Assembly: GCA_964397485.1 (NCBI GenBank)
Contig: CAYNHT010000004.1
Location: 7,825-71,824, forward strand
Reading direction: 5' to 3'
Source of the DNA: an uncultured Muribaculaceae bacterium
GTDB lineage: Bacteria; Bacillota_I; Bacilli_A; RF39; UBA660
DNA length: 64,000 nucleotides
Positions within the stretch are counted from its first letter, which is position 1. The number at the start of each line of letters is the position of its first letter. A model generated the notes under the pieces. The model saw nothing but the letters and a program-made list of their open reading frames with translations, was not told the DNA's origin and did no database searches. A program made the position numbers and the translations under genes. This document shows positions 1,664 to 59,543 of this stretch, in pieces.

Positions 1664-1692
1664 GATTTCCTCCTACACTTGTGTAATAGTGA

Positions 1693-4080: not shown

Positions 4081-4118
4081 AGTCTTACTCCTTTAATATA
4101 GTCTCTATCTTCATGTAC

Positions 4119-4147
4119 ATTATAATATATTTCTACCTTTTTAGCAA
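4119..4147 (-). promoter_or_regulatory. Sigma-A-like promoter for array A paralog 2 (TTGCTA-17 nt-TATAAT), ~35 nt upstream of the ATG.
   Basis: On the minus strand, -35 TTGCTA (plus 4142-4147), 17-nt spacer, -10 TATAAT (plus 4119-4124). The same architecture recurs upstream of paralog 1. Confidence 0.45.
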
Positions 4148-4178
4148 GAAAAAAGAAAACTATTTATTTATAGTTTTC
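4148..4178 (-). terminator. Rho-independent terminator after array A paralog 1.
   Basis: Hairpin GAAAAC-TATTTATTTA-TAGTTTTC (4155-4178) followed on the minus strand by TTTTTTC. Confidence 0.5.
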
Positions 4179-4190
4179 TAAATGTTTCAC

Positions 4191-6479
4191 TTATTTTTTA
4201 TAGTTATATGTTGTCGTCCAAGAGTTAATACTATTAACTACTTTTCTTATTCTGCCATCTAAATAAAGTGGTAAATTTATTGTTGTAGTTTGATTGTGAT
4301 TTAAATTAACAGTATTTGTAGTACTTATATAAGGCTCATACGTTGTAGCCTCAGCTCCCTTTTCTAACTGAATCTGTGAAAAATATTTTATTGCAGAATC
4401 AGGAACTGATAAAGGTTGTGCCTGTATTGCTATTTGATTAAAATCTGCAGGGGTCGTAAACGTTAGTTTAGATATCCCAGATGAACCAGCTTCAATATGA
4501 TTTCCAAAGTAGTATTGTGTCCCATTATCAATATTTATTCTTATACGGTTTTGACCAGCTGATGAGGCTGTTGCATCTATAAAAGCCGATAAAGTATAAG
4601 TTGTATTTGGTTCTAATTCAACTAATGTTACAGTCGAAGGTGAATTAGTAACCGTTTTATTATTTATAACAGATAAATTTTTACCCTCACTTACGAATGT
4701 AACATTTGTATTTGCAGTATTATCAAAATATTTTGGAAAAATTGTATTGTAATCAAATAAATTTATATCATTGTCAACTCCAAAAATTTCCGTTGTATTG
4801 ATAAAAGTCATTCCATCAAAATACATTACATCATCTTCAACATTAGTGGTGCTATACTGTCTTCTTGGGTAAAATGAAACTGATGTTGGATTATTCACTG
4901 TAAAAGTTACAGATTGTTTTTGCCATATATTAGTCGTATTATTCATATTACTATCTATTGTATTTATAGAACCTGAATAAAAACTATTTGACGTACTATG
5001 AATGTTGGTATTTGGAAACAATGTGTAATAACTAATGTAATACTTATCAGTAGAATTAGGAATATTATATGCAAATCTCAAACCATGTCCGTTTAATGTT
5101 GTGTTAAATGTTACTTTTTGTGAATAATTACCACTTACCTTATAAAGGGAATTTAATTCACCATGTTTTCCATTATAAATATAAAAGTTATCAGCAATAC
5201 CATCTAAATCACTATCAATTTCAAAATCACCATAAGTTCCAAATAAATTAGTTGCAGTAACACCTTTAACTTCTATATCAACTGATTTATAATAATTATT
5301 ATTTGTATATACATTAGGAAAAATCGAATTAGATGCCAATAAGTTTAGAGTAACAATTACTGTTCTTGTTTTTGCCTCAGCAACATTTCCTGCTTGATCG
5401 CTCACATTATAAGTAATTGTATATTCACCAGGATTATTAATATCTAGATTACTTGTAATCACTATATCATCAGTGATATCACCTAACATATCATCAATAG
5501 CAATAACACCTATATCATTATAAACACTTCCTGCTGTTATATTAACAATAGTTGGAGTTACTGTTATTACTGGCGAAATTGTATCTATATTGGTAACTTC
5601 GTACGATGTTCCACTTACCTCGTTTGTACCATCTAATATTCTAGCTATAATATTACCATTTTCATTAAAAGTTACTTCTGTTGTTATTGAAGGTTCTTCT
5701 AATTCTTGCCAACTAATTGCACCATCTAAACTATATTCATATATATATCCTGTTTGTCTTTGTGGATAATTAATAGTAACAACAGCACTTTGTGTCCATC
5801 CTGATGGATCTATACTATAAGTTGGAATTGGTATGTCACTTGTTGTTACAACCAATTGTTCTGATACCGTTTTTAAATCATTATTGTTATAAACTCTAAC
5901 CTTGAATGTATAATCGGTATTATTGGTTAAGCCCGTAAAATTATAAACATTACTTATTTGTTTAGAAGTCCAAGTAATCCCGTTATCTTTACTGAATTGA
6001 TACCCATTTATTCCGCTTTCCAAATCTTCAGCTGTTGCTACAATAGTTATTGAACTACTTGTTACTAAATTAGAGGTAATAGATATTGTTGGTGGAGTTG
6101 TATCTAATTGATCACAGCTTCCTTCAACAATTAAAAGATTGTCAATTGTTCCACCAGCACAGTATTTTCCATTACTTACTTTATCTAATACTAATTGACC
6201 TTCTAAATCTTCAAATATTTTACCGCTAGTGAAATTCTTGTTTTTAATTTCTATCTCAGCATCCATTACATTTATTCCTTCTTCTGGAAAATCAATGAAA
6301 TTTTTACCAGCTATATATATATCTGTAGCTGTAAAAAGACTTCTCAAACTTTCCTTGTAAGCAGATTTTTCAACACTACTTATTATTCCTAATACAAGGG
6401 GAAATGTGATTAAAGCAACAATCGATAAAATTACAATTACAGCTAATAATTCTATTAATGTAAATCCCTTTTTTTTCAT
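4191..6479 (-). CDS. Giant prepilin-signal protein, array A paralog 1 (762 aa): same signal peptide and FN3-like N-terminal half as paralog 2, but an unrelated C-terminal half.
   Basis: N-terminus MKKKGFTLIELLAVIVILSIVAL. Roughly the first 300 aa are near-identical to paralog 2; the C-terminal ~400 aa are Asn/Thr/Tyr-rich and unrelated to the LamG paralog. RBS AAGGAGG upstream. Confidence 0.8.
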   Translation of the reverse strand: MKKKGFTLIELLAVIVILSIVALITFPLVLGIISSVEKSAYKESLRSLFTATDIYIAGKNFIDFPEEGINVMDAEIEIKNKNFTSGKIFEDLEGQLVLDKVSNGKYCAGGTIDNLLIVEGSCDQLDTTPPTISITSNLVTSSSITIVATAEDLESGINGYQFSKDNGITWTSKQISNVYNFTGLTNNTDYTFKVRVYNNNDLKTVSEQLVVTTSDIPIPTYSIDPSGWTQSAVVTINYPQRQTGYIYEYSLDGAISWQELEEPSITTEVTFNENGNIIARILDGTNEVSGTSYEVTNIDTISPVITVTPTIVNITAGSVYNDIGVIAIDDMLGDITDDIVITSNLDINNPGEYTITYNVSDQAGNVAEAKTRTVIVTLNLLASNSIFPNVYTNNNYYKSVDIEVKGVTATNLFGTYGDFEIDSDLDGIADNFYIYNGKHGELNSLYKVSGNYSQKVTFNTTLNGHGLRFAYNIPNSTDKYYISYYTLFPNTNIHSTSNSFYSGSINTIDSNMNNTTNIWQKQSVTFTVNNPTSVSFYPRRQYSTTNVEDDVMYFDGMTFINTTEIFGVDNDINLFDYNTIFPKYFDNTANTNVTFVSEGKNLSVINNKTVTNSPSTVTLVELEPNTTYTLSAFIDATASSAGQNRIRINIDNGTQYYFGNHIEAGSSGISKLTFTTPADFNQIAIQAQPLSVPDSAIKYFSQIQLEKGAEATTYEPYISTTNTVNLNHNQTTTINLPLYLDGRIRKVVNSINSWTTTYNYKK

Positions 6480-10831: not shown

Positions 10832-10844
10832 TATACCACCTCAA

Positions 10845-12251: not shown

Positions 12252-12341
12252 AAATCACCTTTTCTTTCATTATTATAGCATATTCATTATTTAACTTCAA
12301 TAAACTAAAGTTAAAAAACATAATATCTCATAATCGTATTT

Positions 12342-24973: not shown

Positions 24974-24999
24974 AAATAAGACCCCCTTCTTTAGTACCA

Positions 25000-43798: not shown

Positions 43799-44275
43799 CT
43801 AATTATTATTATCTAGTCTTTCTAAATAACCACTTGTTTGATACCTCTCCCCACATTTTAAATAGGGTTCATAATTTTCTATGCTAGAATCTCTTAGGAC
43901 GTTAACATAACCACTACAAATAATATTATTATTTATTGGATCATTGATTACACCAATAAAATTATCTTTTTGCAAAGACTTTACTGTTATGGTTAATCTT
44001 GTGCCGACAGGTACTCCTAAAGCATAATATTTATTAATATATTCTTGAGTAGCTTTGATCATCGTTCCCTCTACCTTACGATAACTGCTAATATTTTCAT
44101 TATTAATATAATTATTTCCAGGTTTATTATTATTGTTGTTACGAGCAGTAATTGGATTAGTAATTGGTAACTTATTAAAATTTTTATTAATTGTAACTGC
44201 CACAATAATTATACAAAGAGCCAAGATTCCACAAAATCCCAACATTGCTCTTAATCCCCATCCGTGGTTATTCAT
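43799..44275 (-). CDS. Membrane-anchored hypothetical protein (158 aa).
   Basis: N-terminal TM segment (LGFCGILALCIIIVAVTI) then an Asn-rich extracellular region; starts 10 nt after the NrtR-like gene, so probably co-transcribed. Confidence 0.5.
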   Translation of the reverse strand: MNNHGWGLRAMLGFCGILALCIIIVAVTINKNFNKLPITNPITARNNNNNKPGNNYINNENISSYRKVEGTMIKATQEYINKYYALGVPVGTRLTITVKSLQKDNFIGVINDPINNNIICSGYVNVLRDSSIENYEPYLKCGERYQTSGYLERLDNNN

Positions 44276-45024: not shown

Positions 45025-45087
45025 TTATGATTTTACATATACACTTATTATGAGGCAATTATCTATAAATATTATATATAATTAAGA

Positions 45088-45115
45088 AAAAAAAGTTAAA
45101 TAAATGTTTAACCTT
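45088..45115 (-). terminator. Terminator after array B paralog 1.
   Basis: Hairpin GTTAAA-CATTTA-TTTAAC followed by TTTTTTTT on the minus strand. Confidence 0.45.
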
Positions 45116-45121
45116 CATTTC

Positions 45122-47713
45122 TTAATTTGTTGGGGTTATCGACATATCAAAATTACGTAACTCATATATTGCAAAACCTGCTTGAGTTCCTGTTATATCT
45201 TTATTAGTAGTAAAAATTATACTTTGAATTTTATGCTGCTTTGGTTTTACCGTAATATAGAATACAGGATAAGTTGAATCAGCTAAAATTCCATTAGTCT
45301 TAATAATATCAATTGGATTAGAATAATGATTAGCTGGTGTATAAAGAGAGTTTGATACAATTACTAACGGTTCTAAATATCCACTATCAACGCAATCTTC
45401 AATACTAGCGACATATCCATCTTCAAATTTTATTTTAAAATTACTAACAGTTACACTTCCACTATTATATAATCTAAAAAACATTTGATTCCAATTTAAT
45501 TTGTTATCAGGCTCATTGTCAACTAAATATTCGCGTTCTCCAGCAAATACCTGTTTAACATTACCAACTTTTTCAATGTTAGTTAACATTTTACTATCAT
45601 CACTATTAAACGGTCTTAAACATTGACCATAATCATAATTATTATTACCAATTGTTTCAAATGAACTACACCAACCTTTTAAATCTTTGGTTGGATCATT
45701 GCTTGTATATATATTATCGTAGTTCATACTTATATCACTTCCATAATTAGGTTGTATATTTTTTAATTTTTCAATTAATACTACAGGTTCTTGGAAAATT
45801 TTAGATAAATTTAAATTACTATCATAACTAACCAACATAGCATCACTATGTCCTTTGTTAAAGTTTTTTAAATCCATATTAGAAGAATAAGTACTTCCTG
45901 ATACTATATATTGACCATTACCTGCTTTTATCATATTTCTAAATTTTTCACTGTTATCTCCACCAAATACTTTTTTAGAAATTACATTTCCATTAGTTAT
46001 ATTATACTTTACAATAATTGCATTACTATATCCTTCATTGGATTTAGATATTCCAGTCATATCTAAATCGGATGATTTGCTATACCCTATTACTACAACT
46101 TCGTTATTGTCGCTTTTTTCTATTGCATAAAATACGTCATCATTACTTCCTCCAAATGAATTTTTCCACAAAACCGTATCTAAATTTTTATTATATTTTA
46201 TTATTACAGCATCTACATAACCATTACTTGCCTTACTTAATCCGGACATATCCATATTATTAGCGGCACTTTGACCAACTACTATGTAACCGTCTGATAC
46301 TTCAATAACATCATAAAAATAAGTGTGTCCATCACCACAAAAAGTATTCTTTGTTAATATATCTAAACTACTATTGTATTTTACAATTATACCAATGTAA
46401 TTAAAATTGCTTGGACATGTTGTTCCAGCCATATCACCATTTACTGAAGCTGAATTACCTACAACAATATAATTAGAGTCAGCTGAAGCTAACAGACTTT
46501 GATATGCATCAGCGGACGCCCCACTAAATATATGATGATCTATTATATTTAAATTTAAATCATATGACATTATTATTGCATCCAAACTACCAGGAACAGC
46601 TGGTCTTACTAATGAAGCTACATCTCCATCAAATGTAGAAGACAGTATATGGCCAACTACTACAATCTTATTTTCTTGATTAATTACTTTTATAAATGTT
46701 TCATAATTATTGTTTGATGAACCAAAAACTTTATTAATAATTACTTCACCTTGCTTATTGTATTTAACAATAACCGCATCACTCGGACCACCTTTATAAT
46801 CAACTATGTCACCGTCACTACTTGCCGTTGTACCTACAGCAATATAACCGTCCACCGTTTCTACAACTGAATTAAACGAATCCTCATTGCTTCCACCATA
46901 GTTTTTACTCCATAGGACATTGCCTTGATTATCAAACTTTACTATAATGGCGTCAAAACCACCATTATTACCGGTCCCATATTTTGTTATTACTTCAGAA
47001 TTACTTTTACCAACTGCTATATATCCGCCATCACTTGTTTCTTTAACATCATTAAATTCATCAAGATATTTACCACCATAACTTACATAATGACTCGCAA
47101 ATGTTGAGGCATCAAGTAGACAATCTACATAAGCATTATAACCATAACTATCAGCACCAACTTTCTCAATCTCTACATAACCTACACAACGATTTGTTAA
47201 ATCAGTTGGGATTCTTATCTCAGCAACTTTTTCTTCATCAATTAATAAGTTAAGATCAAGCATTGTTGTTTCACCAATCTCAGTTGGCAAAGTAACATTC
47301 ATACTTTTGGCACTTGCAACCATTTTCTGTTGGTACCATTTAAATGAATCATTATCATAAAGTTGTAACGAATAATTAACTATCCCATTTTCCTTATAAA
47401 TTAATACTTTTGTTTCATCTGGTATTTCTTGATTATTTAAAGGGTTTAAAATTTTTCCCCTTAAATATCCCGTTTCTTTTAATCTTCCTACTTCAACATA
47501 AGTTGTATCTCCTTCCCATACTAACTCATCATTATATTTAAAATAATATAATTCGGCTGATTTGGCAACCATGTCTCTTTGTCTGTCATAGACTCCACCT
47601 TTACTTCTATCAATAATATTCATTATTATTGGGGTTGCTATTAGGGCTATGATTGCAAGAATCACTATTACTGCAAGTAACTCTATTAAAGTAAATCCTC
47701 TTTTCTTTTTCAT
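45122..47713 (-). CDS. Giant prepilin-signal SBBP beta-propeller repeat protein, array B paralog 1 (~864 aa). Start set to ATG at 47713 (MKKKRGFTLIEL...); the ORF-track start at 47773 adds 20 non-homologous residues.
   Basis: Class III signal peptide; conserved ~200-aa N-terminal domain; >=6 repeats of the form DGGY.AVG.S.S.D.D...GG.DA.IVKYD..GN..W.K.FGGS..D.F (SBBP-like); conserved ~280-aa C-terminal domain ending IYELRNFDMSITPTN. Confidence 0.8.
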   Translation of the reverse strand: MKKKRGFTLIELLAVIVILAIIALIATPIIMNIIDRSKGGVYDRQRDMVAKSAELYYFKYNDELVWEGDTTYVEVGRLKETGYLRGKILNPLNNQEIPDETKVLIYKENGIVNYSLQLYDNDSFKWYQQKMVASAKSMNVTLPTEIGETTMLDLNLLIDEEKVAEIRIPTDLTNRCVGYVEIEKVGADSYGYNAYVDCLLDASTFASHYVSYGGKYLDEFNDVKETSDGGYIAVGKSNSEVITKYGTGNNGGFDAIIVKFDNQGNVLWSKNYGGSNEDSFNSVVETVDGYIAVGTTASSDGDIVDYKGGPSDAVIVKYNKQGEVIINKVFGSSNNNYETFIKVINQENKIVVVGHILSSTFDGDVASLVRPAVPGSLDAIIMSYDLNLNIIDHHIFSGASADAYQSLLASADSNYIVVGNSASVNGDMAGTTCPSNFNYIGIIVKYNSSLDILTKNTFCGDGHTYFYDVIEVSDGYIVVGQSAANNMDMSGLSKASNGYVDAVIIKYNKNLDTVLWKNSFGGSNDDVFYAIEKSDNNEVVVIGYSKSSDLDMTGISKSNEGYSNAIIVKYNITNGNVISKKVFGGDNSEKFRNMIKAGNGQYIVSGSTYSSNMDLKNFNKGHSDAMLVSYDSNLNLSKIFQEPVVLIEKLKNIQPNYGSDISMNYDNIYTSNDPTKDLKGWCSSFETIGNNNYDYGQCLRPFNSDDSKMLTNIEKVGNVKQVFAGEREYLVDNEPDNKLNWNQMFFRLYNSGSVTVSNFKIKFEDGYVASIEDCVDSGYLEPLVIVSNSLYTPANHYSNPIDIIKTNGILADSTYPVFYITVKPKQHKIQSIIFTTNKDITGTQAGFAIYELRNFDMSITPTN

Positions 47714-47744
47714 ACACTTTACTACCTTTCTATTATACATATAA

Positions 47745-47773
47745 ATAATAACACACCTGCTGTTTTTCGTCAA
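47745..47773 (-). promoter_or_regulatory. Promoter (TTGACG-17-TATTAT) for array B paralog 1.
   Basis: Minus strand: plus CGTCAA 47768-47773, 17-nt spacer, plus ATAATA 47745-47750. The same element sits upstream of paralogs 2 and 3. Confidence 0.4.
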
Positions 47774-47798
47774 TTAAATGTATATACATATATATTGA

Positions 47799-47826
47799 TT
47801 GAAAGAAAAAAAGAGTTAAACTCTTT
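47799..47826 (-). terminator. Terminator immediately after array B paralog 2.
   Basis: AAAGAG-TTAAA-CTCTTT hairpin abutting the stop codon, then TTTTTTCTTTC on the minus strand. Confidence 0.45.
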
Positions 47827-50427
47827 TTAATTGGTCGGTGTTATTGACATATCAAAATTACGCAATTCATATATTTGTAACCCGTCAGTGTTATTAATAA
47901 TTTGACGATTAGAAGTAAAAATTACACTGCTTAATTTTGATTTTTTAGGCTTTATTTTTATATCTATATTTGGATAATTTCCGACTCCTGTAGTTCCTCC
48001 CGTATTAATAATATCCAATGAGTTAGGAAAGAAATATGTAGTTGAGTTTAATAATAAAGAGGATACAACAACCATTGGCTCAATATAATTATTAGCTAAT
48101 GCATCGCTAATACTAGCTACATAACCGTCTTCAAATTTAAGTTTCAAATTTGAAATCTCAATTGTATTTCCACCACCGCTTAAAAAATACAAATATATTC
48201 TATACCAATTATAATTGTTGTCTGGTTGTTTTTCTATTTCATATTCGTGTTCTCCTGCATATACAACTTTAAAATTAGAAGTATTTTCACCATTAGTTAA
48301 AAGTCTAATATCATCATTATTAAATGGGAATAAACAATAACCATAATTATGATTAATATTAGGAGCATAATTAGTTCCAGAACTACACCAGTTGCCAATA
48401 TCAACACTAGGATTATTAGATGTATATACATTGTCATAATATGAAGAAATTTCAGTACCGTAATTTGGAACAATCGTTTTTAATTTATCAATTATCACAA
48501 CTGGTTCTTCGAACGTTTTAATTAGGTTCAAGTTACTATCATAACTGACTAAGATTGCATCTCTATGTCCTTTATTAAAGTTTTGCAAGTTATAATTATT
48601 TGAATATGTTCCACCTGCTATAACATATCTATTATTATCATTTCTTATAATAGCATTAAAAGCATCACTATTACTTCCACCGAAAACTTTCTTTTGCAAT
48701 ACATTTCCACTTCCATTATATGTAACTAAAAATGCATTACTATATCCACTTCCTGATACAGTTATACCATTCATATCCATATCTTCTGATTTACTATATC
48801 CAACAACAGCAAATTCCTCATTACTAATTTTTAATATATCTCTGACATAATCTTCATCCGAACCACCAAAACTCTTTTTCCAAACAATATTTGATAAGTT
48901 TTTATCATATTTAACTATGATACCATCATATATTTCAGAATCTGTTTTACTCAAGTCAGTCATATCTCCATTAATAGAAGCGCTATATCCCACTGTAATA
49001 TATCCATTATCAACTTCAATTGCACCATTAAATAGTTCTGACTTACTTCCCTTGAAAGAATTTTTATATTCTAGATTACCATTACTATCATATTTTATGA
49101 TTATCGCATCGCTATCTGCATAGGTAGTATCATATGCTAATCCAAGCATATCGTGGTCAAATGAACTCGAACCACCAGTAACAAGATATCCATTATCACT
49201 TGTTTGCATTACGGTGTTAAAGTTTTCATAATATGTTCCTGAGAAAAAACTTCTCCATACGGTATTAAAATTATTATCAAATTTAATAATTATACCGGCA
49301 CTTCTCGTTCCTGGAGCAGTAACACCTGTCATATCTCCGTCTTTCACTAAGATACATGAACTTCCTACAACAATAAAACCATCATTAACTTTAATAATAT
49401 CTCTAAATGCATCAGTTCCATTTGTACCAGATGAACCATAACTTATTTTATTAACAACATTACCACTTAGATCATATTTAACTAAAATAGCATCATCAGT
49501 TCCACCTTTATATATACCTTCTAAATCTACATCATTTGAATTAGTATATCCAACTGCAACATATCCGTCAGTAGTTACAGCAACTGCACGAAAATAATCA
49601 TGACTAGTACCACCAAAATTTTTGCTCCATTCAACATTACCTTGACTATCAAATTTAACAATTATTGCATCATATTTTCCTTTAGTAGTATTTCCATATT
49701 TTGTTATGACTTCAGAATTACTCTCTCCTACTGCTATATATCCGCCATCAGCAGTTTGTTTAACATCATTAAACACATCTAAGTATTTTCCACCATAACT
49801 GACATAGTGACTTGCAAATGTTGATGCATCAATTAAACAGTCTACAAATGCATTATACTCATAATTGTTATTACCAATTTTTTCTATTTCTACATATCCT
49901 ACACAACGATTTGTTATATCGGTTGGTATTCTTATCTCGGCTGATTTTCCCTGATTAATTAACGTATTTAAATCAATAGTTGTTGTTTCTCCAACTTCGG
50001 TTGGTAGAGTGATATTCATGCTTTTCACACTTTCTACCATTTTTTGTTGATACCACTTAAATGAATCATTATCATATAACTGTAACGAGTAATTTACTAG
50101 CCCGTTTTCCTTATAGATTAATACCTTTGCATCATCTGGGATTTCTTGATTATTTAATGGGTTTAAGATTTTCCCCCTTAAATATCCTGTTTCTTTTAAT
50201 CTTCCAACTTCAACATAAGTTGTATTCCCTTCCCATACCAACTCATCATTATATTTAAAATAATATAATTCGGCTGATTTGGCAACCATGTCTCTTTGTC
50301 TATCATAAACTCCGCCCTTACTTCTATCAATAATATTCATTATTATTGGGGTTGCTATTAGAGCTATGATTGCTAGAATTACTATTACTGCGAGTAATTC
50401 TATTAATGTAAATCCTCTTTTTTTCAT
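47827..50427 (-). CDS. Giant prepilin-signal SBBP beta-propeller repeat protein, array B paralog 2 (866 aa).
   Basis: MKKRGFTLIELLAVIVILAIIALIATPIIMNIIDRSKGGVYDRQRDMVAKSAELYYFKYNDELVWEG..., almost identical over the first ~200 aa to paralogs 1, 3 and 4; divergent repeats in the middle; conserved C-terminus. Confidence 0.85.
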   Translation of the reverse strand: MKKRGFTLIELLAVIVILAIIALIATPIIMNIIDRSKGGVYDRQRDMVAKSAELYYFKYNDELVWEGNTTYVEVGRLKETGYLRGKILNPLNNQEIPDDAKVLIYKENGLVNYSLQLYDNDSFKWYQQKMVESVKSMNITLPTEVGETTTIDLNTLINQGKSAEIRIPTDITNRCVGYVEIEKIGNNNYEYNAFVDCLIDASTFASHYVSYGGKYLDVFNDVKQTADGGYIAVGESNSEVITKYGNTTKGKYDAIIVKFDSQGNVEWSKNFGGTSHDYFRAVAVTTDGYVAVGYTNSNDVDLEGIYKGGTDDAILVKYDLSGNVVNKISYGSSGTNGTDAFRDIIKVNDGFIVVGSSCILVKDGDMTGVTAPGTRSAGIIIKFDNNFNTVWRSFFSGTYYENFNTVMQTSDNGYLVTGGSSSFDHDMLGLAYDTTYADSDAIIIKYDSNGNLEYKNSFKGSKSELFNGAIEVDNGYITVGYSASINGDMTDLSKTDSEIYDGIIVKYDKNLSNIVWKKSFGGSDEDYVRDILKISNEEFAVVGYSKSEDMDMNGITVSGSGYSNAFLVTYNGSGNVLQKKVFGGSNSDAFNAIIRNDNNRYVIAGGTYSNNYNLQNFNKGHRDAILVSYDSNLNLIKTFEEPVVIIDKLKTIVPNYGTEISSYYDNVYTSNNPSVDIGNWCSSGTNYAPNINHNYGYCLFPFNNDDIRLLTNGENTSNFKVVYAGEHEYEIEKQPDNNYNWYRIYLYFLSGGGNTIEISNLKLKFEDGYVASISDALANNYIEPMVVVSSLLLNSTTYFFPNSLDIINTGGTTGVGNYPNIDIKIKPKKSKLSSVIFTSNRQIINNTDGLQIYELRNFDMSITPTN

Positions 50428-50459
50428 ATGTCAACTACCTTCCTTATCATTACATATAA

Positions 50460-50488
50460 ATAATAACATAACCATATTGTTTCGTCAA
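50460..50488 (-). promoter_or_regulatory. Promoter (TTGACG-17-TATTAT) for array B paralog 2.
   Basis: Plus CGTCAA 50483-50488 and ATAATA 50460-50465. Confidence 0.4.
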
Positions 50489-50508
50489 TTATTAGTATAC
50501 AGATAAAT

Positions 50509-50529
50509 GAAAAAAGAGTTTGAAACTCT
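50509..50529 (-). terminator. Terminator after array B paralog 3.
   Basis: AGAGTTT-G-AAACTCT hairpin with flanking T-run. Confidence 0.45.
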
Positions 50530-50531
50530 CT

Positions 50532-53084
50532 TTAATTTGTTGGTGTTATTGACATATCAAAATTACGTAATTCGTAAATTGATATTCCCCTATCAGTTCC
50601 CGTTACATCTCTATTAGATGTAAAAATAAAACTATCTATTTTCTTTTGTCTAGATTTTAAATTCATATAGAAAACAGGGTAAGAAGAGCCATCTATTTTT
50701 CCATCTGTAAATAAAATATTATTTAGATTGTTGTAAGTTCTATCACTGTATGGAGGATATGTAAGAATATTCGAAACCACAACTAGAGGTTCAATATACC
50801 CGTCACTAACACTTTGTTCTATACTACCTATATACCCATCTTCAAATTTTATCTTAAAACTACTTAATTCTGTATTGTCATTTTGCATCCTAAAATATAG
50901 TTGATACCAATTAGTTTTAACATTTGGTTCATTGATTATAGGATATTCATTTTCACCTTGATAAATTATTTTAAAATTCGGATTGTTTTCGATGTTATTT
51001 AATAACTTCATATCATCAGAGTTAAATGGTCTTAAACACTGACCATAAGGATAATTACTTTCTCCATTTGGCAAGTAATTGCTACACCAACCGCTTAGAT
51101 CAACTTCTGGATTATTGCTAGTAAAAATATTTGAATAATTTAAACTAGTATCAGTTCCATAGTTAGAAACTATTGTTTTTAATTTTTCAATTATAACAAC
51201 AGGTTCCTGAAATATTTTTGACAAATTAAAATTCATATCATAACCTACTAGAATTGCATCACTATGCCCTTTATTAAAGTTTTTTAAATATCCGTCACTA
51301 GAGAACGTTTGCCCAGCTAATATAAATCTATTACTACTAGTCTTGATAATACTTCTAAATATATCACTGTTGTTTCCGCCGAAGATTTTTTTAGAAACAA
51401 TACTTCCATCAGTAATGCTATATTTTACAATAACAGCATTACTGTAACCATCTTTCGATATAGCTAGTCCACTCATATCCATATCTTCAGACTTACTATA
51501 CCCTACCGCTACTACCTCATTCGCATTAACAGAAGTAACAGCATAAAATACATCATCATTACTCCCACCAAATGACTTTTTCCATATTATATTTTGTAAA
51601 TTTTTATCATATTTAACAATTACTGCATCATTGTAACCATTACTGGCTTTACTTAAATCTGTCATGTCTAAATCAAACCCATTTGAATGACCTACAACTA
51701 TATAGCCATCTGATACCTCAACTATATCATTAAAAGCACCACGACTATTATTACCACCATAAAATTCCATACTTGATACCATTTCCATATCGTTATCTAA
51801 TTTAAATATATATGATGTATATCCACCTTTATATGTTGCTACTCCGATATACCCATTATCTGTAGCAATAAATTCTTTAAAATCTCTATAACTGTGAGCA
51901 TTATGAAATTTAGTTGTCAATATATTAAAGTCAAAATCCATTGTCATAATAATAAATTGAAAACGCCCACCTTCATATATAGCATTTAGATAATCTCCGT
52001 CCTTGGTATATATATCAGCATTTCCTGATATTATAAACTTATTGTCTTTTATCATTATGTGGTTAAAACTTTCACCACCATCTAGGTTTGTTCCACCATA
52101 AGTTCTTTTGTATACTACATTTCCTTGTTTATTAAACTTGACAATTATAGCGTCTGTCGGACCTCCTTTGTAATCATCTATATCGATGTCTTCACTAGAT
52201 GTAGAACCTACTGCTACATAACCATCAGCTGTTTCTAAAACTGAATTAAAAATGTCATTATTGCTTCCACCAAAATTTTTGCTCCAAAGAACATTACCGT
52301 TTGAATCAAATTTTACGATTATCGCATCATACATTCCATTATTACCAATTCCATATTTTGTAATAACTTCCGAGTTACTTCTTCCAACCGCTACATAACC
52401 ACCATCAGTTGTTTCTTTTACATCATTAAATTCATCAAGATATTTACCACCATAACTAACATAGTGACTTGCAAATGTTGATGCATCTAGTAAACAATCT
52501 ACATATGCTTCATATGCATAATTATCATTACCTATCTTTTCTACTTCAACATATCCTACACAACGATTTGTTATATCGGTTGGTATTCTTATTTCTGCTG
52601 CTTTACCTTCGTTTATAAGAGTATCCAAATCAACTGTTGTTTTTTCTCCTATTTCAGTTGGTAATTCTATATTCATGCTTTTGACGCTTTCTACCATTTT
52701 TTGTTGATACCACTTAAATGAATCATTATCATATAATTGAAGTGAATACTTTACTATACCGTCTTCTTTATAAATTAGTACTTTTGTTTCATCTGGTATT
52801 TCTTGATTATTCAAAGGATTTAATATTTTTTCTCTTAAATATCCTGTTTCTTTTAATCTTCCTATTTCAACATAACTTATATCATCTTCCCATACTAACT
52901 CATCATTATATTTAAAATAATATAATTCAGCTGATTTGGCAACCATATCTCTTTGTCTATCATAGACTCCACCTTTACTTCTATCAATAATATTCATTAT
53001 TATTGGCACAGCTATTAGGGCTATGATTGCAAGAATCACTATTACTGCTAAAAGTTCTATTAACGTAAATCCTCTTTTTTTCAT
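50532..53084 (-). CDS. Giant prepilin-signal SBBP beta-propeller repeat protein, array B paralog 3 (850 aa).
   Basis: Same architecture as paralog 2; ends ...ISIYELRNFDMSITPTN. Confidence 0.85.
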   Translation of the reverse strand: MKKRGFTLIELLAVIVILAIIALIAVPIIMNIIDRSKGGVYDRQRDMVAKSAELYYFKYNDELVWEDDISYVEIGRLKETGYLREKILNPLNNQEIPDETKVLIYKEDGIVKYSLQLYDNDSFKWYQQKMVESVKSMNIELPTEIGEKTTVDLDTLINEGKAAEIRIPTDITNRCVGYVEVEKIGNDNYAYEAYVDCLLDASTFASHYVSYGGKYLDEFNDVKETTDGGYVAVGRSNSEVITKYGIGNNGMYDAIIVKFDSNGNVLWSKNFGGSNNDIFNSVLETADGYVAVGSTSSEDIDIDDYKGGPTDAIIVKFNKQGNVVYKRTYGGTNLDGGESFNHIMIKDNKFIISGNADIYTKDGDYLNAIYEGGRFQFIIMTMDFDFNILTTKFHNAHSYRDFKEFIATDNGYIGVATYKGGYTSYIFKLDNDMEMVSSMEFYGGNNSRGAFNDIVEVSDGYIVVGHSNGFDLDMTDLSKASNGYNDAVIVKYDKNLQNIIWKKSFGGSNDDVFYAVTSVNANEVVAVGYSKSEDMDMSGLAISKDGYSNAVIVKYSITDGSIVSKKIFGGNNSDIFRSIIKTSSNRFILAGQTFSSDGYLKNFNKGHSDAILVGYDMNFNLSKIFQEPVVIIEKLKTIVSNYGTDTSLNYSNIFTSNNPEVDLSGWCSNYLPNGESNYPYGQCLRPFNSDDMKLLNNIENNPNFKIIYQGENEYPIINEPNVKTNWYQLYFRMQNDNTELSSFKIKFEDGYIGSIEQSVSDGYIEPLVVVSNILTYPPYSDRTYNNLNNILFTDGKIDGSSYPVFYMNLKSRQKKIDSFIFTSNRDVTGTDRGISIYELRNFDMSITPTN

Positions 53085-53116
53085 ATGTCAACTACCTTCC
53101 TTATCATTACATATAA

Positions 53117-53145
53117 ATAATAACATACCGATATTGTTTCGTCAA
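53117..53145 (-). promoter_or_regulatory. Promoter (TTGACG-17-TATTAT) for array B paralog 3.
   Basis: Plus CGTCAA 53140-53145 and ATAATA 53117-53122. Confidence 0.4.
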
Positions 53146-53164
53146 TTATTACTATATAGATAAA

Positions 53165-53188
53165 TGAAAAAAGAGTTTGAAACTCTTT
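53165..53188 (-). terminator. Terminator after array B paralog 4 (and its out-of-frame remnant tail).
   Basis: AAAGAGTTT-G-AAACTCTTT hairpin plus T-run. Confidence 0.45.
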
Positions 53189-53191
53189 TTA

Positions 53192-53248
53192 ATTTGTTGG
53201 TGTTATTGACATATCAAAATTACGTAATTCGTAAATTGATAAACCGTC
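53192..53248 (-). pseudogene. Untranslated, in-frame remnant of the conserved C-terminal 19 codons (DGLSIYELRNFDMSITPTN*) of array B paralog 4, cut off from the CDS by a premature TGA at 53249-53251.
   Basis: Minus strand reads ...AAT TAT AAT AAT TTA TGA GAC GGT TTA TCA ATT TAC GAA TTA CGT AAT TTT GAT ATG TCA ATA ACA CCA ACA AAT TAA. The DNA is near-identical to the coding 3' ends of paralogs 1-3. Confidence 0.6.
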
Positions 53249-55783
53249 TCATAAATTATTATAATTTTTAGAACTTGTTAAATATATTGAATTCAACTTT
53301 GATAATTTAGGTTTAAAAATTAAGTAAAGTGATGGTGAAGATCCAACACCAGTTCTTCCACCTTCATTTATTAAATCTATAACATTTGGATAAAGTGCAG
53401 GTGGATAAGTTGTAGTTACATACGAATTTACAATTACAAGTGGCTCTATGTAACCTTTTTCTATTGCGTCTGTTATATGACCAATATAACCATCTTCAAA
53501 TTTTAACTTTAAATTAGATAATTCTAAATTACCAGTACCAAAGCTATTATAGGCACGTAACAAATGCCAATTATTATTATTTGTTTGTTGATTTATTACC
53601 TCATATTCATATTCACCCTGATACATTTTAGCTCCATAACCTAGTTCTGAAACTGTCAATAATTTTTGATCATCCATATTAAATGGTCTTAGACAAAACG
53701 CATGATAATAATTACTTGTATTGCCGGTAGTATAAGGGACATTGCTATTGCACCATCCTAGTAAATCTTTTGTGGGATCATTACTAGTGTATATATTATC
53801 ATACTTTAAACTAATATTAGAACCATAATTGCTTTGGATAGGCTTGATTTGATCTATTAGTACAACTGGTTCTTGGAATATTTTAGATAAATTAAAATTA
53901 TTATCATAACTAACTAAGATTGCATCCTGATGACCTTTGTTAAAATTTTTCAAATCCAAGTTGTTCGAATATGTAGATCCGGACAATACATAAGCACCAC
54001 TACTAGTTTTTACGATACTATGGAATTTATCGCTATTCGTTCCACCAAATGTTTTTTTAGAAATAACATTTCCTGTAGCTATGTCATATTTTACTAAAAT
54101 AGCATTGCCATACCCATCTGTTGATTTAGTTATTCCGCTCATATCCATATCTTCAGATTTACTATATCCAACAATTACAACCTCATTATTATTCACTTTT
54201 TCGGCTGAATAAAAATAATCGTCATTACTCCCGCCAAATGTTTTTTTCCATAATACTGCTTCTAAATTTTTATCATATTTCACGATTACAGCATCGAAAT
54301 AACCATTGTCAGTTTTACTAAGACCTAACATATCTTGATCAGATGATTTACTATATCCGACAGCTATATAACCATCTAATACTTCTACTACATCATAAAA
54401 ATAATCCTGTTTACTTCCACGCAAGGAATTTTTTCCAACTAAATTTCCTTCATCATCAACCTTTATAATAATGGCTTCCTCTTGATAAGTATCAGTTGTA
54501 TAACCAATACCATCCATATCATAATCTTTTGACGTAGAAAAACCAGTTATGACATAGTTATTATCACTAGTCTTGATTCCTTTATTGAATTCTTCATTAT
54601 AATGGCCAGTAAAAATATTCATCCATTCAACCTCTAAATTTAAATCAAACTTTATTGTTAACCCCTCTAAAGATCTAACTAGTCCTTGAACATCTGTCAT
54701 ATCTCCGTCATTATTACTGCCTATTCTAGCGAAAACAACAACCGAATTACCAGATGATACAACTCCCATAAAGTGTTCCCAACTTTGACTTGTTCCAAAA
54801 TTTCTTTTAGCCAAAACTTCACCTTGGCTACTATATTTTACTATTAAACCGTCACTTGTTCCACCCCAATAAGAATCAATATCTAAATCATTACTAGATG
54901 TTGAGCCAACTGCAATATATCCACCCGGAATTTCAACTACACTTCTGAATATATCATTATTACTTCCACCAAAATTTTTACTCCAAAGGACATTACCATT
55001 AACATCAAATTTTACTATAATAGCATCATATTTGCCATTATTTCCAATTCCATATTTAGTTATTACATTCGAATTGCTTCTTCCAACAGCTAGATATCCT
55101 CCATCACTTGTTTCAATTACATCATTAAATTCATCTAAATATTTGCCGCCATAACTAAGATAGTGGCTTGCAAATGTTGATGCATCAAGTAGACAATCTA
55201 CATATGCTTCATATGTATAATTATCATTACCTACTTTTTCTATATCTACATATCCTACACAACGATTCGCTAGATCAGTTGGTATTCTTATCTCTGCTGC
55301 TTTACCTTGATCAATTAATGTGTTTAAATCAACTGTGGTTTTAGTACCAATTTCAGTTGGAAGTTCTATATCCATACCTTGGACACTGGCTACCATTTTT
55401 TGTTGGTACCACTTAAATGAATCATTGTCATATAATTGCAAAGAATAATTTATTTTACCATCTTCTTTGTATATTAATACTTTTGCTTCATCTGGGATTT
55501 CTTGGTTATTTAAAGGGTTCAATATTTTTTCTCTTAAATATCCCGTTTCTTTTAATCTTCCTATTTCAACATAACTTATATCATCTTCCCATACTAACTC
55601 ATCATTATATTTAAAATAATATAATTCAGCTGATTTGGCAACCATATCTCTTTGTCTATCATAGACTCCACCTTTACTTCTATCAATAATATTCATTATT
55701 ATTGGGGTTGCGATAAGAGCTATGATTGCTAAAATTACTATTACTGCTAGTAATTCTATTAATGTAAATCCTCTTTTTTTCAT
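53249..55783 (-). CDS. Giant prepilin-signal SBBP beta-propeller repeat protein, array B paralog 4 (844 aa), C-terminally truncated by ~19 residues relative to its paralogs.
   Basis: MKKRGFTLIELLAVIVILAIIALIATPIIMNIIDRSKGG... with the same architecture; ends ...LTSSKNYNNL* where paralogs continue to ...IYELRNFDMSITPTN. Confidence 0.8.
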   Translation of the reverse strand: MKKRGFTLIELLAVIVILAIIALIATPIIMNIIDRSKGGVYDRQRDMVAKSAELYYFKYNDELVWEDDISYVEIGRLKETGYLREKILNPLNNQEIPDEAKVLIYKEDGKINYSLQLYDNDSFKWYQQKMVASVQGMDIELPTEIGTKTTVDLNTLIDQGKAAEIRIPTDLANRCVGYVDIEKVGNDNYTYEAYVDCLLDASTFASHYLSYGGKYLDEFNDVIETSDGGYLAVGRSNSNVITKYGIGNNGKYDAIIVKFDVNGNVLWSKNFGGSNNDIFRSVVEIPGGYIAVGSTSSNDLDIDSYWGGTSDGLIVKYSSQGEVLAKRNFGTSQSWEHFMGVVSSGNSVVVFARIGSNNDGDMTDVQGLVRSLEGLTIKFDLNLEVEWMNIFTGHYNEEFNKGIKTSDNNYVITGFSTSKDYDMDGIGYTTDTYQEEAIIIKVDDEGNLVGKNSLRGSKQDYFYDVVEVLDGYIAVGYSKSSDQDMLGLSKTDNGYFDAVIVKYDKNLEAVLWKKTFGGSNDDYFYSAEKVNNNEVVIVGYSKSEDMDMSGITKSTDGYGNAILVKYDIATGNVISKKTFGGTNSDKFHSIVKTSSGAYVLSGSTYSNNLDLKNFNKGHQDAILVSYDNNFNLSKIFQEPVVLIDQIKPIQSNYGSNISLKYDNIYTSNDPTKDLLGWCNSNVPYTTGNTSNYYHAFCLRPFNMDDQKLLTVSELGYGAKMYQGEYEYEVINQQTNNNNWHLLRAYNSFGTGNLELSNLKLKFEDGYIGHITDAIEKGYIEPLVIVNSYVTTTYPPALYPNVIDLINEGGRTGVGSSPSLYLIFKPKLSKLNSIYLTSSKNYNNL

Positions 55784-55870
55784 CTACTACACTACCTTTC
55801 TTACAATATATAAATGATATCATATTTATATAATAACCGTCAATGTTAGAACAATACTATTTCATTCAAA

Positions 55871-55902
55871 ATAAAAAGAGTTGAATCTTGAGTTCAACTC
55901 TT
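55871..55902 (-). terminator. Rho-independent terminator after rpoC.
   Basis: AAGAGTTGAA-TCTTGA-GTTCAACTCTT, 10-bp stem, followed by a T-run on the minus strand. Confidence 0.65.
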
Positions 55903-55907
55903 TTTGG

Positions 55908-58900
55908 TTAATCCATTAATTCTTGTTCTAATGCTTCTAATGGTTCTTCCTTTAGTAAATCTAGTTCTAAATCATAATCAAACTTTTGATATTTTTTAGC
56001 ACCTGTTCCTGCTGGAATTAATTTACCAATAATAACATTTTCTTTTAACCCGTTTAAGTGATCCACTTTACCATGAATTGCTGCATCTGTAAGTATTCTA
56101 GTTGTTTCTTGGAATGATGCTGCAGATAAGAATGAATCAGTTTCAAGTGAGGCTTTAGTAATACCTAACAATACTGGACGACCAGTTGCTGGATTTTTAC
56201 CTTCAAGAATTAATCCTTTATTAATATCTGTAAATTTATTTATGTTTACCATTGTTCCTGGTAATGATAATGAATCACCTGTATTAATTATCTTTATTCT
56301 AGAAATCATTCTTCTAGCTATAACTTCAACGTGTTTATCACTAATATCAACACCTTGAGAACGATAAACTTTTTGAATTTCTAATAAAATGTATTGTTGT
56401 ACAGTAATTGGATCTGTTACGATTAAAAGTTCTTTAGGACTAATTGCACCATGTGTAAGTCTTTGCCCCGCTTTAACTTCTTCGTTTAGCTCAACAGCTA
56501 ATTTAGAACCATAATTTGATGTATGCTCTTTTGTTTCAACATCGTTTGTTACTGAAATAACAAATTTACCATTTTCTTCTTCGATCTTAGATACTCTACC
56601 GTTAATATCTGAAATAGTAGCTTTACCTTTAGGATTACGAGCTTCAAACAACTCTTGAACACGAGGTAAACCTTGTGTAATATCATCCCCGGCAACTCCA
56701 CCTGTATTAAATGTACGCATCGTTAACTGTGTACCCGGCTCACCAATTGATTGGGCTGCCATAATACCAACTGCTTCTCCAATTTCAACAACTGATCCAG
56801 TTGCTAAATTACGACCATAACATTTTTGACATACACCATGGTCTGTTTTACATGTAAGAACAGTTCTGATAGGTACTTTTGTAATTCCTGCTTTAATAAT
56901 CTTGTCGGCAAGTTGTTCATTAATATAAGTATTTCTCTCAGCAATGACTTCTTTTGTTTCTGGATGAATAACTTTTTTATTAGTATATCTTCCGATAATA
57001 CGATCAGAAAGTGATTCAATTATTGTTCCATCTTTTTCATTAGTAAAAGCTGCAACTAACACACCTTGTTCAGTACCACAATCTTCTTCTTTGACAATTA
57101 TATCTTGTGATACGTCAACTAAACGACGAGTTAAGTAACCAGCATCCGCTGTTTTTAACGCTGTATCAACGGCTCCCTTACGAGCACCATGTGTTGATAA
57201 GAAGAATTCAGATATTGTTACCCCTTCACTAAATGAAGATTTAACAGGAATCTCTACATATTCTCCACCCGGCTTAAAGAATAATCCACGCATACCAACT
57301 AATTGAGTATGACTTCCAATATCCCCACGAGCTTTACTCATCATCATGATAGAAATTGGATTTTCTTTATCTTCTTTAACCATTGTTTCTAATTCCTTAG
57401 AAATTTTTGTTTTAGCGTTTGACCATATATTAATAACTTTTTCATATCTTTCTTGATCAGTAATTAAACCTCTCTTAAATTGCTTATTAATAGTGTCTAC
57501 CATATCTTGACTCTCTTTTAAGACTTCAGGTTTAATAGTACTTTCTTTGATATCTGTAATAGCAATCGATATTCCAGATAAAGTAGAATATTTAAATCCT
57601 AAATCCTTTAGTTTATCAAGCATAACTGATGTTTCAGTTGTTTGATATCTTTTATATATTTGAGCAATTATCTTACTTAAAGCCCCTTTATTTAAAGCAT
57701 CAATCAGTGGCATATTTTCAATTTCTTCTTTAATGTTTTTACCACTATCAATAAAGAATTTGCTAGGAGTAATTTTTTCAATATTCTCAGAACTTCCTTC
57801 GTTAATATATTGGAAAGTATCTGGGAAAATTTCATTAAATAATAATTTACCAGGAGTTGTTGCTAAATACTTATTCATATAAGCATCAGGGAAAATTTTG
57901 TATTTAAATGATCTTACTGGTAACGCAATACGTGTATGAAGAGTTATTTCTCTTCTTTCATATGCCATAATTGCTTCGTTAGCATTTTTAAATACTCTTC
58001 CTTCACCAGGTAATCCCGCTTTTTCAATTGTTAAGTAGTAATTACCTAAAACCATATCTTGTGACGGTGTAACAATTGGTTTACCATCTTTGGGACTTAG
58101 GATGTTATTAGCACCTAACATCAAAATACGAGCTTCTGCCTGTGCTTCTTCACCAAGTGGTACGTGAACTGCCATTTGATCTCCATCAAAGTCGGCGTTG
58201 AATGCCGCACAAACTAATGGATGCAATCTTATAGAACGACCACTAATTAATTTAGGTTCAAATGCTTGAATACCTAATCTATGTAATGTAGGAGCACGGT
58301 TTAATAACACTGGATGCTCTTTGATCTTTTCTTCAACAATATCCCAAACTCTAGGATCTTGATTTTCAATCATTCTTTTCGCAGCTTTAATATTAGAAGC
58401 TATTTCCTTAGTTACTAATCCATTAATAACATGTGGTTTAAATAACTCTAATGCCATTTCTTTAGGTATTCCACACTCATACATTTTTAAGTTTGGACCT
58501 ACTACGATAACTGAACGTCCTGAATAATCAACACGTTTACCTAATAAGTTTTGGCGGAATCGACCTTGTTTACCTTTAAGCATACTACTTAATGATTTTA
58601 ACGGACGATTTCCAGCCCCTGTGATATTTCTACCGCGACGACCATTATCAAATAAAGCATCAACAGCTTCTTGAAGCATACGTTTTTCATTTTGAATAAT
58701 GATAGACGGAGCTCCTAAATCCATTAATTTCTTTAAACGGTTATTTCTGTTAATAACACGACGATATAAATCATTTAAATCACTAGTAGCGAAACGTCCA
58801 CCATCCAATTGAATCATAGGACGTAACTCTGGTGGTATAACTGGTAGTGCATCTAAAATCATCCATTCAGGACGATTTCCTGATTCCATGAATGCACTTA

Positions 58901-59543
58901 ATACGTCTAATCTTTTTATTAAACGAATTCTTTTTTGTGAAGTAGAATCTTTAATTTCTTCAATATCTTTTTTTATTTGTTCTACTTCTGGTTCAAGTAC
59001 TACTTGTTCCAATAATTCTTTAATTGCTTCCGCACCCATTCCTACTCTAAAAGTATTACCATATTTTTCATAATAAGCACGGTATTCTTTATCAGAAATA
59101 GTTTGTTTTTTCTCTAATGGGGCTGCTCCTGGATCTAAAACAACATACGATACAAAGTATAATACTTCTTCTAAATCACGTGGAGACATATCTAGAACTA
59201 ATCCCATTCTTGATGGAATTCCTTTAAAGAACCAAATGTGAGATACAGGAGTTGCAAGTTCAATATGTCCCATACGCTCACGACGTACCTTAGAACGAGT
59301 TACTTCAACTCCACATCTATCACAAACAATATTTTTATATCTTAAACGTTTATATTTACCACAAGAACATTCAAAATCCTTTGTTGGACCAAATATTTTT
59401 TCACAAAATAGTCCGTCACGCTCTGGTTTTAAAGTTCTGTAGTTAATAGTTTCAGCTTTTTTTACTTCACCAAATGACCAAGATCTTATTTTATCAGGTG
59501 AGGCAATTGCGATTTTTAAACCTTCAAAGTTGTTAACATCCAT
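55908..59543 (-). CDS. rpoC: DNA-directed RNA polymerase subunit beta' (RpoC).
   Basis: 1211 aa; [29 protein letters not shown]..., zinc finger CSCGKYKR...[15 protein letters not shown] catalytic motif. Confidence 0.98.

Follow-up and report, generated by a model that had tools for sequence, protein, structure and literature searches.

Why should a bacterium with a genome of about 1 Mb carry tandem genes for proteins that begin like type IV pilins and then continue to some 850 residues, and what might such proteins do? The question is raised by a 64,000-nucleotide stretch of contig CAYNHT010000004.1 (GenBank assembly GCA_964397485.1, positions 7,825 to 71,824), from an uncultured bacterium of the RF39 lineage of Bacilli, which we call the window. 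It has ~30% G+C, carries almost all of its genes on the minus strand and is 100% identical to JGI contig Ga0334893_1000005 (609,507 bp). Four of the genes, B1 to B4, form array B (45122-55783) and three more form array A (1-6479). An initial annotation had proposed that these genes encode pilin-type N-termini fused to large β-propeller ectodomains, and that the products are either pilus-tip adhesins or a display system akin to the archaeal bindosome. The fusion is supported by the analysis presented here and the tip adhesin is a reasonable reading of it. With a probability of roughly 0.55, we consider array B to encode modular type IV pilin-like surface proteins, that is variable adhesins carried by a pilin module, located at filament tips or held in the membrane.

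The N-terminal pilin module

All genes of array B lie on the minus strand: B4 (53249..55783), B3 (50532..53084), B2 (47827..50427) and B1 (45122..47713) encode modular prepilin-type proteins of 844, 850, 866 and 863 residues, respectively. The proteins of array A, at 762, 795 and 749 residues, are of comparable size, so the giant dimensions first reported are accurate. A six-frame regular-expression scan of the whole window identifies GFTLIE at the start of seven long minus-strand open reading frames (ORFs). All seven products display the leader MKK[RKS]G, then the cleavage site, FTLIE and a hydrophobic helix, and the six complete proteins all match Pfam N_methyl (PF07963, E 1e-7 to 6e-9) and TIGR02532 above cut-off. 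The seven class III N-termini noted at the outset are thereby borne out. The hydrophobic stretch, FTLIELLAVIVILAIIALIA, comprises about 21 hydrophobic residues with glutamate at position +5. This glutamate, residue 10 of the precursor, is invariant across 68 homologs, with Gly-1 and Phe+1 to Leu+7 invariant or nearly so.

The 68-sequence alignment was the input for an AlphaFold2 model of B2, which has a mean predicted local distance difference test score (pLDDT) of 90.6 and a predicted TM-score of 0.85. The model, the invariant columns of the alignment and a profile match to solved pilins together delineate an extended pilin module at residues 1-212 (49792..50427, minus strand). The leader is MKKRG with cleavage predicted before Phe6. 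A 55-residue α1 helix (residues 8-62) and a small β-sheet (69-116) create the ‘lollipop’ typical of pilins, with pLDDT values of 76-89 in this part. A second α/β subdomain (120-200) carries the conserved pair Cys175 and Cys197. The N-terminal profile matches full-length pilins from cryo-EM structures of filaments, the best being Streptococcus sanguinis PilE1 (PDB code 8pfb, E 6e-8), where residues 6-95 of the query align with residues 1-90 of the chain. Residue 1 of the solved pilins therefore aligns with Phe6, which is the predicted first residue of the mature protein. The array B N-terminus is thus predicted to adopt a pilin fold, in which the long α1 helix lies against a head made of β-sheet. 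Cys175/Cys197 and a second pair in the C-terminal domain, Cys681/Cys698, are conserved in the 68-member alignment and represent hallmarks of an extracytoplasmic location.

The Cys-bridged subdomain has weak relatives in the window. A 158-residue protein (43799-44275, minus strand), encoded directly downstream of array B, and a 422-residue protein (25000-26268, minus strand) each have a single N-terminal membrane anchor and no Pfam match, and share some 75 residues with array B residues ~126-201 (hhalign E 9e-5, probability 59%) in the pattern LP..G..i.L..L…P…C.GYV.i.K…Y.Y.ay.DC.

The propeller and the C-terminal domain

Residues ~203-642 of B2 (48502..49821, minus strand) form a seven-bladed β-propeller in the AlphaFold2 model, with 28 strands arranged in seven four-stranded blades and pLDDT mostly above 90. 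Prediction of the propeller structure had been proposed as a check and the seven blades were obtained. The earlier description of the repeats as SBBP repeats holds only in part. The seven-bladed propeller itself is a solid assignment. Pfam SBBP (PF06739) gives no match at E<=0.01 on the whole proteins nor at E<=10 on the isolated propeller, and the NCBIfam model NF047494 (SBBP lipoprotein LipL53) matches B2 alone, at E 7e-17 and 61 bits, far below the cut-off of 400. The label ‘SBBP-like’ is accordingly a weak one. The array B propeller is not restricted to pilin-type proteins; a database search for homologs locates it also alongside dockerin, cohesin or Big_2 modules in proteins that are not pilins.

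Is the propeller an enzyme? The first Foldseek match in the PDB is the seven-bladed propeller of CylK (E ~4e-22, 19% identity, TM-score ~0.54 on the target), an alkylating enzyme that occupies the top of the list; generic propellers follow at E ~1e-6 and the weaker matches include sialidases and GH43 enzymes. The C-terminal propeller of CylK (PDB codes 7fh8, 7roo) likewise has seven blades with Asp-rich blade junctions, which in CylK bind Ca2+ (PMC8916777). A catalytic propeller of CylK, sialidase or lyase type, merely positioned by the pilin module, might be considered on this basis, and the modular pilin survey of Raynaud et al. 2021 mentions modular pilins with predicted peptidase modules (PMC8179133). 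We regard a surface-displayed enzyme as very unlikely. The identity to CylK is only 19%, and CylK, a biosynthetic enzyme of the cyanobacterial cytoplasm, has at its N-terminus a β-roll, a Ca-binding domain that provides half of its active site and is absent from array B (PMC8916777). Neither Pfam nor NCBIfam gives a match to an enzyme family, and the core blades of the propeller are the most variable part of the protein, which would be unusual for a conserved active site.

The C-terminal domain, modelled as a β-sandwich at residues ~645-866 of B2 (47830..48495, minus strand), is marked by the motifs NYGT, GYIEPLV and NFDMS. The domain measures ~225 residues rather than the ~280 first estimated and is 36-72% identical among the paralogs. 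No relative is detected by sequence in Pfam or the PDB, and in a full HMMER search across 1.84 billion representatives the domain turns up in 141 clusters only. In complete proteins it is found at the extreme C-terminus. Strong matches with a complete N-terminus commonly present it behind an N-terminus of class III type, which reads GFTLIE or, in a variant that lacks Glu5, KGITLIAL, and some have a propeller or fn3/Ig spacers in between. Many carriers of the domain (P0376, P0379, P0391, P0399, P0419 and others) open with another pilin-like N-terminus, KGITLIALVITIIILLILAG, with alanine in place of glutamate at +5; they may constitute a second class of pilin-like carrier.

B4 is shorter than expected at this end. 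It stops at an in-frame TGA where a homolog has tryptophan (…NLWDGLSIYELRNFDMSITPTE; 53189-53251, minus strand), and the 19 codons past the stop (53189-53248) still read DGLSIYELRNFDMSITPTN, the conserved C-terminal motif. Since TGA genuinely terminates three other genes of the window, this one is a nonsense mutation, and the conserved ELRNFDMS tail is lost with it. Translation of TGA as tryptophan (genetic code 4) was considered and rejected, given that three other genes end in TGA and that TGG is used 109 times. The identical 844-residue product is encoded on at least seven contigs from several samples.

Conserved carrier and variable cargo

The four array B proteins share 60-65% identity overall, distributed very unevenly. 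Residues 1-60 are 98-100% identical, the sequence up to residue 270 is ~80-88% identical, residues 330-480, which cover blades 3-5, are 26-36% identical, and the rest of the propeller and the C-terminal domain fall at 36-72%. The strongly conserved N-terminal block, estimated in the initial annotation as a domain of ~200 residues, thus extends to ~270 residues with 80-100% identity among paralogs. Nonsynonymous (dN) and synonymous (dS) divergence, calculated by the method of Nei and Gojobori, follow the same trend. At residues 1-60 dS is 0.36 and dN/dS ~0.05, at residues 61-130 the values are 0.72 and ~0.08, at residues 331-480 dS is saturated with dN/dS of 0.5-0.86, and elsewhere dS is also saturated with dN/dS of 0.15-0.35. 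The pilin module is thus both homogenised and under strong purifying selection, and blades 3-5 are hypervariable, being free or driven to vary. From the uniform carrier ends and the diverging blades we infer that the paralog set may represent a repertoire of binding or antigenic specificities.

How could the 5′ ends remain so uniform? Their nucleotide identity is a mosaic. A gene of a further array beside mraZ is 100% identical to B4 in codons 1-40, and B3 is 100% identical to B4 in codons 41-80, yet only 88% in codons 1-40. This mosaic indicates patchy gene conversion, apparently between arrays hundreds of kb apart.

Copies of the gene are numerous in the species. On the parent contig, a fourth array A-type gene (755 aa) is found past the window start. 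Two genes of 742 and 861 aa are paired between rpe and PFOR, ~25 kb upstream of rplL-rpoB and on the same contig as the rpoB region of the window. The array beside mraZ comprises four genes (768/860/766/765 aa), the 860-residue member having an N-terminus identical to those of B3 and B4. Its content varies by sample, with 768/860/779/752 aa in one and …/859/766/752 in another (L089/L090, L209, L210, L211), which suggests strain-level turnover. Further genes of 539, 861, 553 and 1012 aa are found on other contigs. The total is at least 18 such genes (~43 kb) in arrays beside rpoC, pnp, mraZ and rpe, in a genome that we estimate from contig sizes at ~1.0-1.3 Mb.

Other assemblies of the species (L007, L216, L217 and L218, compared with window positions 46880-55797) present alternative array B junctions. 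In one, B4 on the rpoC side is followed by a 553-residue gene that matches B3 with 97% identity over its 5′ ~840 nt. In another, an 861-residue paralog, P0005, directly precedes B2-B1-nrtR-rpsL, and the sequence is 99.96% identical to the window from B2 onwards. Several contigs break exactly at the conserved 5′ repeats. Either the arrays have really recombined at their conserved 5′ ends to give the alternative junctions, or the assemblies are chimeric at the repeats.

A broader proposal, which we put forward tentatively and regard as rather doubtful, is that this clade employs the pilin module as a general adhesin carrier, with at least 18 giant proteins in ~1.2 Mb whose ends are kept uniform by gene conversion while the binding domains diversify, and with arrays that may reshuffle between paralogs. 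If true, this would be a variable-surface-protein system with a logic like that of the variable lipoproteins of mycoplasmas, built on pilins, and it might work without adjacent conventional pilus machinery. Interest in the locus would rise if the arrays do form such a recombination-driven variable adhesin system.

Relatives and their modules

Full-length homologs (840-880 aa, 50-70% identity) are common in assemblies named ‘MAG: Bacilli bacterium’, where MAG denotes a metagenome-assembled genome. Their names are all automatic, such as ‘prepilin-type N-terminal cleavage/methylation domain-containing protein’ or ‘type II secretion system protein’. Other homologs, of ~540 residues, lack the C-terminal third. 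In GTDB genomes, the N-terminal module has relatives in MAGs of uncultured Bacilli, Tenericutes and Mollicutes, which come for the most part from guts and digesters.

The 79 loci of these relatives (1.17 Mb) contain 108 class III ORFs amid housekeeping genes, with a median length of 322 residues and 61 of the 108 at 300 residues or more. A Pfam scan of 69 large class III proteins identifies Ig-like, DUF6273, fn3, LRR/BspA, Flg_new, GLUG, Laminin_G_3, F5/8C and dockerin modules; most of these proteins have no known domain and none has an obvious enzyme domain in Pfam. Adhesin-type cargo of this kind in related GFTLIE proteins counts for an adhesin role.

The same data bear on a simpler arrangement, in which no filament is involved. 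The class III signal and α1 might only export the protein and tether it in the cytoplasmic membrane, with the ~200-residue N-terminal module spanning the wall as a stalk; in the clade such tethering would take the place of anchoring by sortase or as a lipoprotein. In keeping with such pilin-anchored display, the attached modules are those usual on LPXTG or cell-wall proteins of Firmicutes, the species has 18 or more of these genes in ~1.2 Mb of genome, dispersed next to housekeeping operons and in no case adjoining machinery, related MAG loci add ~25 further class III ORFs for every Mb surrounding the targeted genes, with the median length given above, and ~1.4 Mb of related loci include no canonical type IV pilus ATPase or peptidase. 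A simple anchor, however, needs neither an invariant Glu+5 nor a pilin head under strong purifying selection, and because these two properties are observed here, they argue for interactions with pilin-type partners over a bare membrane anchor. We note also that pilins normally reside in the membrane before assembly, so that display and filament are compatible. Display without a filament, taken alone, is in our judgement somewhat unlikely, though the number, size and dispersal of the genes and the missing machinery keep it in view.

The archaeal bindosome of Sulfolobus, which the initial annotation named as the closest conceptual analog, likewise consists of large non-filament proteins with a class III signal peptide. 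The analogy fails on the features that define the bindosome. Bindosome proteins are solute-binding proteins of ABC transporters, served by a dedicated Bas system, whereas the window proteins have the bacterial GFTLIE with Glu+5. Pfam and NCBIfam detect no solute-binding domain and no ABC-transporter or Bas-like gene in the array proteins and the window neighbours (rpoC, the NrtR-like regulator and rpsL), so even a display system would not be a bindosome in the strict sense.

The search for pilus machinery

The initial annotation had found no prepilin peptidase, assembly ATPase or platform protein in the 64 kb and had placed the machinery elsewhere. We scanned the 34 other ORFs of at least 150 residues in the window with Pfam and the seven without a Pfam match with NCBIfam. 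No Peptidase_A24, T2SSE or T2SSF domain is detected in the window, and these ORFs are housekeeping genes or unassigned to families. PilB, PilT, PilC, PilM and PilD from locus L194 and TadA, TadZ and TadE from locus L034, used as tblastn queries, also give no match in the window. The first observation is thus confirmed, and the second, that any machinery would be encoded elsewhere, is supported. L194 is an ordinary, unrelated Bacillales pilB-pilT-pilC-pilA-pilMNO-pilD locus.

Relatives of the clade have a Tad system. L034 encodes a Tad-type ATPase of a family that is highly conserved in Bacilli MAGs, and a search with this TadA returns more than 120 clusters at >=80% identity, none of them on contigs of the window species. 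In relatives the Tad locus, Flp-TadE-TadE-TadZ-TadA-TadB-TadC, is situated right after cysK-cysS-Zn_peptidase_2-DUF192 (L214 4647-13583, L206 8200-13570). The window has the same cysK-cysS-Zn_peptidase_2 block at 10133-13310, but there it leads into truB-rpsO-pnp and array A, and Tad genes are missing. The TadB of the relatives’ locus has an Ig-like domain. An apparent junction of TadA to a GFTLIE pilin in L034 was set aside as a probable assembly artefact; it lies at a contig end, and relatives of 81-92% identity have TadB-TadC in that position. A contig of the same species as the window carries a ComEA-like gene, which hints at DNA-uptake genes.

Could the array B proteins then be Tad/Flp- or Com-type substrates or pseudopilins with no adhesive role, minor pilins that prime a DNA-uptake or Tad filament? 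The conserved Tad locus of the relatives and the ComEA-like gene would fit, as would weak partial matches of the N-terminus to ComGC, GspG and ComGD-F models. These matches involve only residues 1-60 and reach 17-30 bits, far below cut-offs of 49-89; the PilA equivalog model is likewise limited to residues 1-60 and far below its cut-off. Tad pilins, the relatives’ own Flp and TadE genes included, use the Flp motif G/xxxxEY and not GFTLIE, the window genome has no Tad locus at the syntenic cysK-cysS-Zn-peptidase site, and priming pilins are small and single-copy as opposed to ~850 residues in 18 copies. A priming role of this type is, in our view, very unlikely.

Candidates for small pilins occur in relatives. 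Paired GFTLIE pilins of 117-135 aa are located between obg and SpoU methylase-rimM-trmD (L042 9992-10791; L025 10001-10742; L030; L001 1-30). The window species has the same SpoU-rimM-trmD block, and its small (major) pilin candidates may be positioned just upstream.

A model for array B and the case against it

Our preferred reading, that of modular pilin-like adhesins, would involve the following steps. The precursor would insert in the membrane through its class III signal, and a prepilin peptidase encoded elsewhere would cut after Gly5 and probably methylate Phe+1. Docking onto a type IV filament of small pilins would then depend on the α1 helix, with its Glu+5, and on the small pilin head. 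The bulk of the ~90-kDa ectodomain would limit the protein to the filament tip, or would leave it anchored in the membrane by its pilin part until it is assembled. The ligand-binding (adhesin) modules would be the propeller and the C-terminal β-sandwich.

Several points weigh against such a scheme. Genes for a prepilin peptidase, PilB/ComGA, PilC/ComGB and PilMNO were not found in the window or in ~200 kb of the species (~16% of the genome). Regular-expression and tblastn searches of 2.15 Mb of loci, drawn from metagenomes both related and unrelated, detect canonical type IVa pilus genes in L194 only and Tad genes in another lineage. To our knowledge, at least 18 alternative tip subunits of ~90 kDa is a number far above that of any studied pilus, and we know of no demonstration that a ~90-kDa domain can pass through peptidoglycan at a filament tip. 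The architecture discussed here is also derived from structure predictions rather than solved structures.

Comparison with known systems

Raynaud et al. 2021 defined modular type IV pilins as a pilin module with grafted effector modules and surveyed more than 1,200 such proteins in 264 architectures, up to 860 residues long, the lectin-type PF13385 being among the commonest modules (PMC8179133). S. sanguinis PilB is a pilus-borne adhesin, and PilB and PilC are incorporated in pili and mediate adhesion (PMC8179133). These two, PilB with a vWA module and PilC with a concanavalin A-like lectin module, are among the nearest likenesses to array B, with which they share the class III signal with Glu+5, a small pilin module, grafted modules, a monoderm host and a predicted adhesive role (PMC8179133; PMC9934059). 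Extra modules, the mark of a modular pilin, are present in both arrays: the propeller and β-sandwich in array B, and fn3, Ig-like and Laminin_G_3 in array A. The 795-residue array A protein, with its C-terminal Laminin_G_3 (PF13385), is the architectural counterpart of S. sanguinis PilC as that protein is described there. The differences are those of scale and context. The mature array B proteins, at ~90 kDa, are about twice the size of PilB and PilC (~50 kDa); there are three further domains behind the pilin module, and neither the propeller nor the C-terminal domain is in Pfam; and at least 18 paralogs in arrays unlinked to machinery compare with one or two genes in a pil operon.

PilY1/PilC tip adhesins of Pseudomonas and Neisseria place a β-propeller at the pilus tip via minor pilins, which a propeller fused to a pilin would accomplish in one polypeptide. 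PilY1 is no pilin, however, and belongs to diderm systems; its Neisseria_PilC/IPR008707 propeller has no Pfam match in the array proteins and does not appear in the first 50 Foldseek matches in the PDB. CofB/TcpB (type IVb pili), GspK (type II secretion system) and ComZ (Thermus) likewise combine a pilin module with extra domains at a filament tip, and serve as initiators or adaptors according to the survey (PMC8179133). They differ in fold (β-repeat/β-sandwich, α-domain and β-solenoid, respectively), in being single-copy genes of a machinery operon and in size (35-55 kDa).

The suggestion that this combination is not a described family needs qualification. The modular pilin class is published (PMC8179133), while the family that unites pilin, propeller and C-terminal domain is only auto-annotated in databases. 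In the literature searched we found no description of such a family, of its expansion to at least 18 copies in a ~1-Mb genome, of arrays of it beside core operons or of its pattern of conserved carrier and variable cargo.

If the proteins are carried on type IV filaments, the modular pilin design would extend to three-domain cargo of ~90 kDa and to diversifying multigene families. They would also point to a way in which an uncultured 1-Mb lineage of Bacilli, in which few other surface systems are visible, attaches to hosts, particles or other cells. The C-terminal domain and the Cys-bridged N-terminal subdomain, both unannotated, could be defined as new families. Should the genome prove to have no prepilin peptidase or assembly system, the class III signal would serve purely for display in a bacterium, a more unusual outcome.

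Transcription of array B and other genes of the window

Array B is flanked on one side by rpoC (59543..55908) and on the other by genes for an NrtR-like regulator and the 158-residue membrane protein, then rpsL-rpsG-fusA-tuf. A terminator-like hairpin after rpoC (55873..55905, minus strand), with a 13-bp stem, sets the array apart from the rpoBC transcript. A consensus scan locates TTGACG-17/18-TAT(T/C)AT with an extended -10 TG before every B gene. The site before B4 (55814..55843, minus strand) is TTGACG-18-TATCAT with TG, and those before B3, B2 and B1 lie at 53117-53145, 50460-50488 and 47745-47773 on the same strand; all four are called promoter-like from consensus match alone. The last of them concerns the start of B1. 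The ORF list begins this gene at TTG 47773, a longer frame that overlaps the promoter-like site (47773-47745); the start is put at ATG 47713.

Each gene is also followed by a hairpin with a T-run on the minus strand. That after B4 (53166..53190) is AAAGAGTTTCAAACTCTTTTTT, and the others lie at ~50510-50531 (B3), ~47806-47826 (B2) and ~45086-45121 (B1). The stems are too AT-rich for the rule of the terminator scan and were recognised by direct reading of the intergenic sequence. With a promoter-like site and a hairpin of their own, the array B genes look like separate transcription units.

Array A, also on the minus strand, encodes the 762-residue protein (4191..6479) with fn3 and Bact_surface_Ig-like modules, the 795-residue protein (1693..4080) with fn3 and the C-terminal Laminin_G_3, a concanavalin A-like lectin domain, and a third protein (1..1660) with N_methyl and Bact_surface_Ig-like, which has 749 residues on the parent contig and is cut by the window start.

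Elsewhere in the window there are two paralogous sets of CoA-enzyme-activase-like genes ~20 kb apart, at 13591-16547 and 35719-37747 (minus strand). One set comprises BcrAD_BadFG and HGD-D/DUF2229 proteins, the other a second HGD-D/DUF2229 pair. A 771-residue protein (22685-25000, minus strand) has one N-terminal membrane segment and no Pfam or NCBIfam match; its gene is translationally coupled to the downstream gene of the 422-residue anchored protein, with stop and start overlapping at 25000.

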